The translations under genes were made by a program, and so were the position numbers. 64,000 nt of DNA from Octopus vulgaris (lineage: Eukaryota). Positions within the stretch are counted from its first letter, which is position 1. The number at the start of each line of letters is the position of its first letter. Of the stretch, positions 3,786 to 58,045 are shown piece after piece. The DNA is taken from positions 80,166,001-80,230,000 of the forward strand of contig OX597831.1 of NCBI GenBank assembly GCA_951406725.2, in the 5' to 3' direction. The notes under the pieces are model-generated. The model worked only from the letters and a program-made list of their open reading frames with translations, was not told where the DNA came from and did no database searches.

Positions 3786-3831
<46 letters not shown>

Positions 3832-3835
<4 letters not shown>

Positions 3836-4392
3836 TTTGAGCGGTCTCAAGTGTAACAGGCAGAAACTGTAATGACGATTGGGAACTTGATTGATGAAAG
3901 AAAGCCACGAATGTTCCGTCCTGGATTTTTCTGTTCGTCTTTGTATCGGCCATCTGTCCGTATTCTTTTTATTGTCGTCTGTCACGTTCTTATTCCGTTT
4001 TGGGGATTTATATATACATATAGCAACGTATATATACCTCACACGCCAGCTCAACTTAACTTGTCCTCATTAGTTGAAAGACAGCTGTTGTTATTCTCGT
4101 GGTGTTAGTATTTGTAATCGTAAAACATTTTCACTTTTTTTTTCTAGTTTCTTTTTATTTTTGTTTTCGCACATATTTGCTTGCTTTCAAATATGTAATG
4201 CTCTTAACTTAGATACTTGGGGCTACCTATTTTGAATAGTCTCAAGTGTAACAGGCCGAGACGATAATGATAATTGGAAACTTGACTGATGAAAGAAAGC
4301 CACGAATGTTCCGTCCTAGTTTTACCTGTCCGTTTTCGTATAGTCTATCTGTTGGTATATTTTTTATTGTCGCCCGTTTCGTTCTTATTTCG
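3832..4392 (+). mobile_element. Dispersed repeat, ~1.4 tandem copies of a ~395-bp unit in (TA)n; homologues at 33812-34035 and 44705-45075
   Basis: TCTCAAGTGTAACAGGC...GAAAGAAAGCCACGAATGTTCCGTCC at 3845 and 4240; CTCACACGCCAGC and AATGCTCTTAACTTAG shared with the 44.7-44.9 kb copy. Confidence 0.7.
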
Positions 4393-4454
<62 letters not shown>

Positions 4455-4621
4455 AAATTCGAAATGCGATAAAATAAAATTAATTATTATCGCTGGTGTT
4501 TCTAGCACAGGCCATATATTATTCATATATAAGTACATTAAAAGGCGAAGTATGTACTAGAAACACAGAAGCTTGATAAATTTAGTGAAATGAAAATAAA
4601 AACTTTTACTAACTCGGTTCT

Positions 4622-4694
4622 TCTTAGACAGCAGTTTCGCCTATTTCAGCAATAAAAATAATATTTATTTACTCAGGTAGGCTCTTCAGTAAGA
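4622..4694 (-). ncRNA. Type I hammerhead ribozyme (array copy 1)
   Basis: Minus strand TCTTA-CTGAAGA-GCCTA...TAGGC-GAAAC-TGCT-GTC^TAAGA. Confidence 0.85.
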
Positions 4695-5022
4695 TTCCTG
4701 TTATTCTAAAATCGCATCACGATAGACACATGTGCGTCTACTAATTTGCTCTTTCTAACTAATCAGATCACTGCGCAGACGCAGAACGTACTCGACAAAC
4801 TAGGGATTTCTGGTATATAGTCTAACGCTCAAAATTTATCGAGAAATATGTAAACAAATTCAAAATGCGATAAAATAAAATTAATTATTATCGCTGGTGT
4901 TTCTAGCACAGGCCATATATTATTCATATATAAGTACATTAAAAGGCGAAGTATGTACTAGAAACACAGAAGCTTGATAAATTTAGTGAAATGAAAATAA
5001 AAACTTTTACTAACTCGGTTCT

Positions 5023-5094
5023 TCTTAGACTGCAGTTTCGCCTATTTCAGCAATAAAATAATATTTATTTACTCAGGTAGGCTCTTCAGTAAGA
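5023..5094 (-). ncRNA. Type I hammerhead ribozyme (array copy 2)
   Basis: Minus strand TCTTA-CTGAAGA-GCCTA...TAGGC-GAAAC-TGCA-GTC^TAAGA; palindromic stem III ACTGCAGT. Confidence 0.9.
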
Positions 5095-5422
5095 TTCCTG
5101 TTATTCTAAAATCGCATCACGATAGACACATGTGCGTCTACTAATTTGCTCTTTCTAACTAATCAGATCACTGCGCAGACGCAGAACGTACTCGACAAAC
5201 TAGGGATTTCTGTATATAGTCTAACGCTCAAAATTTATCGAGAAATATGTAAACAAATTCAAAATGCGATAAAATAAAATTAATTATTATCGCTGATGTT
5301 TCTAGCACAGGCCATATATTATTCATATATAAGTACATTAAAAGGCGAAGTGTGTACTAGAAACACAGAAGCTTGATAAATTTAGTGAAATGAAAATAAA
5401 AACTTTTACTAACTCAGTTCTT

Positions 5423-5481
<59 letters not shown>

Positions 5482-21962: not shown

Positions 21963-22023
21963 TTATCGCTGAAGAGGGGAAAATTCTTATGAATTAACCC
22001 CGAAATTGGAACCAATACGGTAA
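21963..22023 (+). ncRNA. Type I hammerhead ribozyme motif
   Basis: TTATCG-CTGAAGA-GGGG..AATTC/GAATT..CCCC-GAAA-TTGG-AA-CCAA-TA^CGGTAA. Confidence 0.85.
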
Positions 22024-23562: not shown

Positions 23563-23791
23563 CGGAGTAAACACATAAATGTGAAACAAGGTGGAAAAAA
23601 GAGTACTCAAACACCAGTCGTAGAGTAATATGCTTTATTTAAAGCAGCAGAAAATTCAACAAAAGCTGTTACTCTGAGTTTCACGTTGCCGTTCGTCGGA
23701 CAGTTTTAGCAAAAACTGTCCGACGAACGGCAACGTGAAACTCAGAGTAACAGCTTTTGTTGAATCTTCTGCTGCTTTAAATAAAGCATAT
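23561..23791. mobile_element. Fold-back pLTR-like element with two inverted hammerheads (23666-23703 minus, 23716-23753 plus)
   Basis: 80-bp arms 23628-23707 / 23712-23791 with 1 mismatch; CTGT-CCGACGA-ACG-GCAA-CGT-GAAA-CTCAGAG-TA^ACAG. Confidence 0.85.
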
Positions 23792-35033: not shown

Positions 35034-35923
35034 GTAAATGCAAATTACGATGAATGTAAACAAACAAACGAAGTTGGCTTTAGAAGCGTTGAGATGTCTT
35101 AGAAAGTTAAAGAAGTGATTTTTAAATTCTCAAACGCAGGATAATGCTAATAATATAACCTGAACAGGATTAGCTACCCTTATTTTGCAGAAAAAGGTGT
35201 TGGCAGCCGGCTATGAGACTCGAACTCACACTTCCGTGTCTACGCGTCGCGGTGCTCTGAACCATTAAGCTAAACATCCCACACCACAAATTCTTCCGCA
35301 AAGGCAAATTTGTTGTTGAAAATGGACCTAAATTTGAAAAACTTGTAATTGTTTGAAATAAATTCATTTACATATATACCAAACTAGTTTCAACAATATT
35401 TTTTGTTTATCAATTCTAAAAATTTAGAATTATGAATTAGAAAAACATGCTTAAAAGTTTCAATGTTGACAAGTTTAAATGTTCTTAACAGTCAATAACA
35501 TAAAAGCTGTACATCAACTGGTTTAAATGTACAAAGTTCATTAGTGTTAGGAGTGACAGACAAGAAATAAATATCGTCAAATGTTCAGTTATACTGAGTT
35601 AAGATGGAGGAAAACATAATTATATACATATATATATATATATATATAATTATAATTACAATTCTCCTTTTTGGTGAAACATTGCAAACTGCTGTTTATA
35701 TTAATTTTAAATATATATCTATATATAGTCGCCATGATAGATCGCTAGCTACTACACACATTTTTTTCTCTTGTTTCTCTCCTTGTTTTTTTCTGTGTAT
35801 CTTTCTGTAGAAGAGCGTAGGCACGAAACGTAAAATACTTTTTCTATTCCTGAGCGTTATACTAATACATCTGTTTGTTTTCTACACCACCTGTCTTCGT
35901 CTTTCGAGAGACCAACAAAATTC

Positions 35924-46219: not shown

Positions 46220-48401
46220 GACCAGAGGATACGGTCAACATGGTATCATCCTCGTCATCACTGAACTCGTCAATGGACAGTGATGCTGGTCTCTCCTCTG
46301 TCAGACTGGCAGGTTGTTGCTCGCCTTGGAACTAGATGATCGTGTGTTCGTTATCAATCAGTTCCCGTCCGTACTGCGGTTGTTGGTCAAGCAACAATTG
46401 TCCGGCATCTCTCCACAAGTTCGCACCAAAATCTTGCACATTGGTATTGTTACAAAAGTCCATTGTGGCACTGTGGTAGACTGCTTGCGTCGATTCCCTT
46501 CAGTTTCTCGAGTGGATCTTTTGCTTTAACGCATGGGAAGAATTCTTTCTCGAAGACTGCGTAACGAGCGTCGTTGATACTGGTACAGCTTGTTTGACGA
46601 TATATGCGACAGGTGTATTTTTCTATAACGGTGAATGTTTCCAGGTCTGGGTCAGCATCACCTAGCTTGGCAAATGCATACTGGAATTCTGTGTTCTCCT
46701 CAAGGATTTGAAGAGGCCGTATCTTTCCTTGCCTGTCAAAAGAAGATGTGTAGTCACAGCCTGTAAATATGTGAAATCCAGGCAGAGCTTTGCACATGAG
46801 AGGCCCAATCGATGCTGCTATCTGCGACAGGTTGACGTACCGCCGAGTGTTCTGGCCGCTCGTTCCCACTTCCATCCATACTGCGGCCTTCGCTTTCTCG
46901 AGATGATATAGCATGATTACAGTGATATCGGTATCAGACGCACGGATGACAATTCCTTCATAGTCTTGTGCCATGTGCAGCACATGAGGAACCACCCGTG
47001 TAGCTCCCTCATCATGGTTGCAGTCCAGTTCTGGAGCTCTCTCTCGAATCATGACGCCATGATTATTACGGTACCTCCAGCACTGACTTCCAGTTCCGAC
47101 GTACATGGTTTGAGTACCCAGAATCGACGAGTATTCGTCTTTCTCCCGCTCTTGAGCTAGGAACTGGGGGGTTCCTAGCTCAAGAGGACCCATAAAAATT
47201 CCGGTAGAAAGTCTTCACCAAGTCTGTAGGGTCCTCCTCCCCGTGCAGTAAAGCCTCTGTGGTCAGTGGATAGTTCAATATATAATCAGCTTTTTCACTC
47301 TCTTCAATTCCTTCCGGAGCAACAGCACCACCTGGTTGAGGATATGCTCAGGGGAGGAACTGAAATCAAACGCTGCTCTTACTGCGTCCTCTTGGACTGC
47401 AGCAGAATCGACTACCTCACCTAATTTCTTTCTCTTGGGCGATTGTTCTTTGATATTATCTTCGAATTTTCGCACGATCCATTTACTCAAATACTGAGCT
47501 GTTGAAAACGACTTAACCCCGGCATCCAGGCAATATTCGACATGTCGTGTGTAAAGGGATGTCAGCAATTCCGGTCGTTTCTGATTCTGCACGTATTCCC
47601 TTATGAAGTCAGAAAGTAATTCTATCGCTTGTCCTTTTGGTTCACTCGTTTTGTCATCCTTTTCCTTCAATGCCTGCGCGCGTTTGGAGAAAATATTCTT
47701 ACAGCTTTGATGGTAGTTTACTTCCTTAGCGATCATATCTATTCCAGCGATTTTTCGGAGCACAGTGTCACCATTGTTTTTTGCTACTATTCTCGTGGCT
47801 GCCCATTTAATTGACTCTTGTGCATCGAAAGTTTGCCAAGTAGTCAGACTTTCTTCTCCACTCCTGCCTTTTGACTTTCGCTTCAAATCGTAGAATACGC
47901 AGACCTGAGAGTAAATGCCGGAAGAAGATGTGGGCACCACTGTTGGTATTTTGCGTTTTCTTGAGTCGTTTCTAGAGGCTGAACATCATCTGTGATAGCT
48001 GTGAAATCTTTATAACAACCACTGTGGTATCCATGCAAATCAGAAAATGTTTCTGGCAGCTTTTGGATGATGTCGTAATAAATGGATGTACGGAATCTTT
48101 TTTTACTTGAGCGTTTTGATGCGCCGTTTTGGATGGATCGCCATTTCTGCTCTGAGAGCGGAAGTATCAGTCCACTTTCAGCGCTCTCTTTAGACTTTCT
48201 GCTGTGGATAACACAGTGTAATGAGCGATCATTTACACCGGGAGACTGACTGGCCGAGGGTACATTCGCAGGTTCCGACTGGGACCCGCCAATATTCAAT
48301 GCTGAATCAGGTGGGATTACGTGGGGATCAGTTTGAGAGGTGACAAGCTCGGGGGAATATGAAGGTTACCCAGGATCGCCAGGTGAGAAATGGTCCTCCA
48401 T
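46220..48401 (-). pseudogene. Academ-like (XPG/PIN-domain) DNA transposon protein, disrupted and internally deleted
   Basis: N-terminal GYHSGCYKDFT and DMIAKEVNYHQSC motifs; C-terminal CNHDEGATR..IVIRASDTDITV..FHIFTGCDYTSSF..GK FEN1/XPG-like motifs; frameshifts and stops between the ORFs. Confidence 0.75.
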
Positions 48402-56043: not shown

Positions 56044-56160
56044 TAAGGGACATTAGCCAATTGAATATGGCTAGGGACAGGGCAGACTAGCCATATTCAA
56101 TTGGCTAATGTCCCTTATATTATGGAGCAGTCACTGTCTATATCTCATTTAGAGAATTAT

Positions 56161-56165
<5 letters not shown>
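56044..56165. mobile_element. Short fold-back copy of the 17.2 kb family (31-bp perfect arms)
   Basis: 56044-56074 / 56087-56117, plus the same ATGGAGCAG...AGAGAATTATTATT tail. Confidence 0.85.
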
Positions 56166-56201
<36 letters not shown>

Positions 56202-56248
56202 TTTATGAAAGAATGGAGTTGAACGACTTGTTAACAAATTTCCTTTAT

Positions 56249-56329
56249 TTTCGACATATGTTTCGAAGGCTGCATATTCCTAATTCCGAAGGAATAAGGA
56301 GTACATCATGCAGATTTCTCATCAGGAAA
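56249..56329 (-). ncRNA. Canonical type I hammerhead ribozyme motif
   Basis: TTTC-CTGATGA-GAA..CTGCATG...TATGCAG..TTC-GAAA-CATATG-TC^GAAA. Confidence 0.88.
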
Positions 56330-56438
56330 GGCAAGGAACTTATGTCGACATCAAAATGCACAAAAAACTTTTAGCTGACTGCTCTCAAGGAGCCCATGGC
56401 GATAATGAGTGTCTGTTTATAAGGAGTGACGTCAGAGT

Positions 56439-56503
<65 letters not shown>

Positions 56504-56505
56504 TA

Positions 56506-56650
56506 CAAAACTGTCCGACGAACGGGAACGTGAAACTCCGGGTAACAGCTTTTGTTATATTTCTGCTGCTTTTAAATAAAGCATATTACTCTATCTCTGG
56601 TATTTGAGTACTCTTTTTTTCACTTTGTTTCACCTTTATGTGCTTACGCC

Positions 56651-56652
<2 letters not shown>
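56506..56652 (+). mobile_element. Single copy of the 23.6 kb pLTR-like family with hammerhead at 56511-56548
   Basis: CTGT-CCGACGA-ACG-GGAA-CGT-GAAA-CTCCGGG-TA^ACAG. Confidence 0.8.
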
Positions 56653-56711
<59 letters not shown>

Positions 56712-56887
56712 TTACATATCGACACAAGCACATACACACACGCACATATACGTATATATATATATTTTCATAAAGCTTCCCGTTATATATATGAATCACA
56801 TGCTTGTATGAATTTATGTATATGGGTGTGTGTGCATGCACATATATATTTTCATATACATATATACAAATACATACATATGTATGA

Positions 56888-57219: not shown

Positions 57220-57369
57220 GCACACACACACACATCGACATACGTATATTGGGGAATATGACTTCCCCCAAAACATAAAATTACGTCATAAATAGCAGAG
57301 ATATTGAGTAAAGAATTAGCTGTCTTAAATAGATGTCATCCACAGGTCTTGATAGAACAATTCTCTCGA

Positions 57370-58045
57370 TTACTAATCTGGTGATAAAATGCAGACGGCT
57401 AGCTTTCAGAACAAGAGAGAAGGAGACACTAATGGCCCTGTGGAAAACTTTCGTCCTCAGCCGCTTGGACTACTGCTCCCAACTATGGTCACCACACAAT
57501 ATAAAACTAACAGCAGAACTCGAAGCAATTCAAAGAAGCTACACAAAGAAGATCGTCTCAATGCAACATATCAGCTACTGGGAAAGACTGAAAGTATTAA
57601 AACTCTTCTCTTTAGAGCGAAGGCGGGAGAGATATGTGGTGATATACATCTGGAAGATTCTGGAGGGTCTTGTCCCAAACTTTGGCATTCAAAGTTACCC
57701 CAACTGCAGAACGGGGCGCCACTGCATGGTGCCAAAGATTCCAACATCACCATCAAAATACAGGACCAGATACTGCAACAGCTTGGATTTCAAAGGACCA
57801 CAGTTCTTTAACATCCTCCTTAAATGCCTGAGAGACTTGCATAGTGTGGATGTGGGTTTCTTTAAAACTAAAATGGATCTCTTCTTGTCAGGGGACACAG
57901 ATGCGGGCCGCGGCATCGAACTCCCTTGTTGACCAAGTGCCACGTATCAGAGGTGGATTCACATATTAGTGTAGCTCATTCAGCGGTGGTGCCCCAGCAG
58001 GGCCCTAGCCTTCGGGCTAAAACATTTTTAAGGATTTAAGGATTT
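57370..58045 (+). mobile_element. 5'-truncated CR1/L2-group LINE (ORF2 C-terminus, 3' UTR, AAGGATTT tail)
   Basis: FRTREKETLMALWKTFVLSRLDYCSQLWSP..LEAIQRSYTK..SYWERLKVLKLFSLERRRERY..IYIWKIL. Confidence 0.9.

Follow-up and report, generated by a model that had tools for sequence, protein, structure and literature searches.

Metazoan non-LTR retrozymes have been described as tandem arrays of 150- to 450-bp units with a GC content below 50%, one type I hammerhead ribozyme per unit, and many genomic copies, and the units of mussel retrozymes measure ∼350 to 390 bp (PMC7229834; bioRxiv 10.64898/2026.07.22.740005). The element class is known, and what is at issue is the template from which these arrays are copied (a circle or a cut linear RNA) and the part that hammerhead cleavage plays in mobilization; an array end at the ribozyme cut is not an outcome that rolling-circle copying would predict. 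Type I hammerheads also occur in Penelope-like elements with an endonuclease, for which a bias toward microsatellites has been reported (PMC8557442). In vitro work on one of these, Poseidon, the only such system to have been purified, indicated that cleavage is not needed for insertion and that uncut RNA is the dominant template, and in the accessible portions of the same study no RNA-seq reads begin or end at the cut (PMC11167929). The in vivo role of Penelope-type hammerheads has been called a mystery (PMC7761336). In Drosophila R2 RNA, the ribozyme cuts at the 5′ junction of the element (PMC3774820). We found no published count of termini relative to the cut for hammerhead retrozymes in a literature search covering the main texts of openly available papers; the portions of PMC4918200 and PMC8490949 that were accessible contain nothing on termini.

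The 64-kb stretch of DNA analyzed here (the window) carries on its minus strand, at positions 4452 to 5424, a 973-bp insertion made of 2.43 head-to-tail tandem units of ∼401 bp with a GC content of 32%. Counting the 2-nt TA overlap at each end, the array runs from 4450 to 5426; it is noncoding, with a longest Met-started frame of 36 aa. Measured from cut to cut, it comprises a first monomer of 399 bp (5028 to 5426), a second of 401 bp (4627 to 5027), and a 3′ partial unit of 175 bp (4452 to 4626) whose end would mark the start of reverse transcription, all on the minus strand. The array, its strand, and the run of both ends into (TA)n with a 2-nt overlap are seen directly, and the two flanking tracts, (TA)29 at 4394 to 4451 and (TA)26 at 5425 to 5476, are the presumed left and right parts of the target. 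Non-LTR retrozymes have a long target-site duplication when one is present; with pure (TA)n on both flanks, no such duplication can be read at this locus. The left neighbor, at 3832 to 4393, is an older partial tandem between (TA)n tracts in which 165 bp is repeated at a distance of 395 bp with 82% likeness; one copy contains CTGATGA without a complete hammerhead, and the region may be an element of this type in a decayed state.

The ∼401-bp repeat is a high-copy family. The stretch or part of it is present in 20 of the 24 public runs listed, across 9 studies, and we aligned contigs of four of these runs (X2, X3, X5, and X9) on one monomer, 4742 to 5140, divided into 29 bins. The four runs supplied 290, 363, 220, and 69 contigs, with all 29 bins covered in each, many shared variants, and a summed contig depth of up to 220,000 (thousands to more than 100,000 per large run). 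The tandem joint from 5140 to 4742 was recovered in X2 and X5. None of the listed runs that contain the stretch is on record as RNA, which speaks neither for nor against expression. All 29 bins are also spanned in X9, a run guessed to be RNA, the contigs of which are silent on ends, strand, and circles. Searches for copies in the metagenome_contigs (two patterns), viral_contigs, and genome_contigs collections gave 0 matches.

A profile search with Rfam RF00163 placed two type I hammerhead motifs on the minus strand, one in each full unit, and both can be read directly in the array. The motif at 5022 to 5095 (30.7 bits; E value of 2.1e-05; predicted cut 5028/5027) has an intact core and a palindromic helix III, and in the motif at 4621 to 4695 (25.3 bits; E value of 1.3e-03; predicted cut 4627/4626) one change in loop 3 breaks the palindrome. 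Both score below the RF00163 gathering score of 34 bits and are therefore absent from a gathering-level scan. Each aligns to all 45 RF00163 positions with a 31- to 32-nt insertion in loop 2; in both, the core elements CUGANGA, GAAA, and NUH are intact, and the three helices follow the type I arrangement. Helix I has 5 bp, helix II has 5 bp plus a long stem-loop, and a monomer forms 2 bp of helix III. The predicted active fold (−15.4 kcal/mol) lies 5.9 kcal/mol above the minimum (−21.3 kcal/mol), and the hammerhead regions fold modestly better than shuffles and no more than that (z scores of −2.05, −1.52, and −0.54). An 8-nt palindrome makes up the helix III region, with a predicted pairing between two units of −11.1 kcal/mol, and a variant at 5022, present at 12 to 38% of contig depth, would provide one more helix I pair. 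Partial, dimer-assisted cleavage of the array RNA is plausible because the monomeric helix III is so short, the active fold sits above the minimum, the palindrome can pair between units, and both dimer and trimer retrozyme RNAs are present in the axolotl (PMC7229834); dimer-dependent hammerhead cleavage has been described (PMC4209133). Of nine predicted Xenopus retrozyme dimers, one was cleaved in vitro and eight were not (bioRxiv 10.64898/2026.07.22.740005).

The position of the array's right end is the central observation. On the plus strand the full units read TTCTTA|GAC at 4621 to 4629 and 5022 to 5030, where the bar denotes the predicted scissile bond, and the third copy reads TTCTTA at 5421 to 5426 and then passes into TATATA. 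Read on the minus strand, 5421 to 5426 is where the inserted RNA begins (its 5′ end), and it corresponds to the 3′ strand of hammerhead helix I from the predicted cut onward; the remainder of the third hammerhead is absent. The third unit can be matched to the previous one as far as 5426, and the alternating TA tract is already pure from 5425. The true break must therefore follow 5424, 5425, or 5426, and the predicted GUC scissile bond corresponds to the last of these three positions. A sequence-only reading of this locus had claimed that the full units carry this junction, that the partial third unit stops at TTCTTA and runs into (TA)n, and that the array boundary coincides with the predicted self-cleavage site with 2 nt of ambiguity from the TA repeat, and our analysis confirms each of these points. 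The same 2-nt TA overlap occurs at the other array end (4450 to 4451), however, and is thus not peculiar to the cut end.

If the break fell uniformly, the chance of coincidence with the cut at this one locus would be 1.5/401, or 0.37%; if a break requires a TA/AT run, of which there are 58 alternating ones per monomer, it would be 1/58, or 1.7%. Of the individual causes considered for the array end, run-off of the reverse transcriptase at the 5′ end of a self-cleaved RNA is the most likely, and we think it probable, though well short of assured, that run-off from ribozyme-cut RNA explains why the end lies at the cut. The sequence-only reading had gone further and concluded that the boundary is therefore a footprint of reverse transcription of a self-cleaved RNA; its ribozyme, strand, and cut position stand, and the cause it names is the most likely one, but one locus does not warrant the "therefore," and the shared UA doubles as an ordinary microhomology to (TA)n, one of 58 such sites. 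That microhomology is central to the strongest competing account, which assumes the same retrozyme insertion but a circular or uncut multimeric template, as in the published rolling-circle model (PMC7229834, PMC7761336). Synthesis would have stopped at random and been joined to the target via a TA that, by chance, occupies the two positions immediately past the cut. The 3′ product does begin with UA, and with 50 arrays examined the probability of at least one coincidence rises to 17% under the uniform null and 58% at 1.7% per array. We nevertheless regard this account as the less probable, if serious, one, given that it requires a coincidence of 0.4 to 1.7%.

The array's internal structure bears on how intact the template was. 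The two monomers differ at 6 of 401 positions (4 substitutions and 2 one-base gaps), and the 3′ tail differs from the adjacent unit at 1 site. Both units carry T at 4792/5192, where more than 99% of contig depth is C in X3, X2, and X9 and 84% is C in X5, and the units agree at the high-frequency family variants locatable in at least two of them (9 of the 11 checked). Since the units agree at family variants and share a rare letter, they derive from one template haplotype, supplied either by a circle or by a source array that was homogeneous. The sequence is base-perfect across both internal cut junctions, which implies that the cDNA crossed two uncut or religated hammerhead sites and that the template was at most partly cleaved, a point that the sequence-only reading leaves out. 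A circle would yield just this combination of a single haplotype and exact junctions, which counts in favor of copying from a circular or uncut template.

A nicked circle (a linear monomer closed by helix I, or a recut circle), its nick jumped in most rounds and its end reached by fall-off in the last, would account jointly for the single haplotype, the more than two units, and the end at the cut. Bases are often gained or lost when a template is jumped, so the internal junctions would be expected to be altered, yet both are exact; RNA hybridized to cDNA, moreover, should presumably not refold into a hammerhead. We therefore consider a nicked circle quite improbable. We give slightly less credence still to a secondary end, by which a longer array was trimmed afterward through its (TA)n tract, whether by deletion, by slippage, or by a join made in assembly. 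The window contains 102 TA/AT runs of at least 8 units, and the two one-base gaps between monomers may be sequencing errors; but no further piece or copy of the ∼401-bp unit was found elsewhere in the 64 kb, and there is no reason for a later break to fall on the cut.

Contigs from other copies of the family provide a view of insertion ends, drawn here from the 24 loose-end rows listed of 104 and the 32 pieces listed of 950. The strongest of these 24 rows consists of 10 X5 contigs that join (TA)n before 4846, ∼5 nt from the array's own left junction (4851/4852 in the reference register). The RNA 3′ side is thus a recurring priming site and a feature of the family, and this fixes the polarity and makes the cut end the run-off end. 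A second start, into a second target microsatellite, is seen in 2 X9 contigs that join (GAT)n near 4931 to 4943. None of the 24 listed rows (of 104), including those from X5, has a loose end at the cut (5024 to 5028). As (TA)n junctions are visible at the priming end in X5, the blank in that run is mild evidence that cut-site ends do not dominate; the listed rows include neither junction for X3 and X2, and these runs have little power. Contig ends at 5025 (X3 record 14) and 5026 (X2 record 6) were left uncounted, a branch into (TA)n being expected to end a contig at 5027. The lack of cut ends among the listed rows is compatible with a circular or uncut template, as are contigs in X2 and X9 that bridge the cut with at least 31 letters on each side. 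A stem-loop considered at the priming site folds locally no better than shuffles (z score of 0.03) and was not used as support.

Contig depth leans the other way. Between the priming site and the cut, summed depth in the four runs is 2.36, 1.56, 2.74, and 2.49 times the level in the remainder of the unit, ratios computed over 24 of the 29 bins and omitting the left edge, the cut-straddling bin, and three bins at 5106 to 5140 where the array's variant is rare. The excess roughly spans the interval between both junctions of the 4452 to 5424 copy, which copying from a circle or uncut multimer does not readily explain, and is what arrays of n + 0.44 units would give. The step across the cut, comparing bins 5008 and 5036, is absent from X2 (0.95) and amounts to 1.82, 1.70, and 3.18 in the other runs. 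This is a weak and confounded hint favoring cut-site ends: copy number cannot be read from summed depth, a single variant structure is common to all four runs, and plain 5′ truncation would also raise depth near the priming end.

We also scanned the window with a relaxed hammerhead pattern, which returned 7 matches: the two array motifs, one at 22018 that was discarded for want of a proper helix III region, and four in other (TA)n-flanked inserts. One of these four inserts, at 56200 to 56440 on the minus strand, is an unrelated type I hammerhead-like sequence with a long helix II and a palindromic loop 3, lying between two (TA)n tracts; it begins 188 nt before its cut (56253/56252) and ends 53 nt after it, and since it spans the cut, it must have been copied through an uncut site. 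The remaining three, at 23669, 23750, and 56545, are short minimal motifs with a changed core, CCGACGA, and belong to three arms of one Penelope-type terminal-repeat family, an inverted pair at 23574 to 23787 and a single arm at 56503 to 56652. The arms begin ∼40, 40, and 42 nt ahead of their predicted cuts, where helix I has its upstream edge. None of the four inserts begins at its own cut, in a scan that is blind to copies starting at the cut, as these lack the motif. These other motifs in the window are pattern-level candidates, with no Rfam hammerhead at E values up to 1 in 56150 to 56720 or in 3820 to 4400.

Several further sequences in the window may be mobile elements of other kinds. 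A GC-richer stretch with broken open reading frames at 46450 to 48365 on the minus strand includes a 254-aa frame resembling mollusc and arthropod clusters, with faint XPG-like neighbors, and is probably a decayed DNA transposon. A 199-codon open frame lies at 57333 to 57932, which we take to resemble the C-terminal end of a LINE ORF2, and a borderline tRNA match at 35208 to 35279 on the minus strand (30.1 bits against a gathering score of 29) is probably the head of a tRNA-derived SINE.

Taken together, our preference for run-off from a cut RNA is supported by the exactness of a coincidence that chance would rarely produce at one locus, and it is weakened by the restriction to one locus, the absence of cut ends among the listed rows, the four other inserts that do not begin at their cuts, the uncut template of Poseidon, and the low success of the Xenopus dimers. 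Under this preferred reading, a source array would be transcribed, and weak dimer-assisted cleavage would leave an RNA of trimer length whose 5′ end had been cut while its two internal sites stayed uncut or were religated. An endonuclease would then nick a (TA)n target, and a reverse transcriptase, which a Penelope-like element probably supplied, would prime internally, ∼176 to 182 nt downstream of a cut site, copy 973 nt, and run off at the 5′-OH end. The terminal UA could finally anneal to the TA target and start the second strand. Whether this applies beyond the present copy is more doubtful, and we propose only tentatively that a large share of family insertions have the hammerhead cut as their end and a single fixed internal position as their start. 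If this were true, animal retrozymes would be copied from linear self-cleaved RNA, giving arrays of n + 0.44 units and solo fragments of ∼180 bp, and not from circles only, and germ line ribozyme cleavage would be recorded in the genome thousands of times. With so many copies, (TA)n targets, and a priming site that recurs, this family is one in which counting termini in a single assembly could answer the question.

Judged by its sequence features, the 4452 to 5424 array belongs to the animal non-LTR retrozymes, a known class to which it adds a new family: it has tandem noncoding units within the 150- to 450-bp range, a GC content below 50%, and hammerheads in at least two consecutive units, and its many genomic copies are evident in 220 to 363 variant contigs per large run, the tandem joint, and the junctions to (TA)n and (GAT)n. 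The published retrozyme model invokes a circular template and, in the portions accessible, is silent on where arrays end, whereas here one end coincides with the cut and the other lies close to a priming site that recurs in the family. Penelope-like elements with an endonuclease, such as Poseidon of Anolis carolinensis, resemble this family in their AT-rich or microsatellite targets, partial tandem structure, and type I hammerhead (PMC11167929, PMC8557442, PMC4209133), and the internal start of reverse transcription at two adjacent sites in Poseidon (PMC11167929) is like the recurring priming site described here; unlike autonomous Penelope-like elements, however, the array has no open reading frame. 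R2, with its HDV-like ribozyme at the 5′ end, offers a precedent in which the cut can define the 5′ junction and chance microhomology has been proposed to prime the second strand, but it differs from the present family in its ribozyme class, its autonomy, its site specificity for 28S rDNA, and its single unit (PMC3774820).
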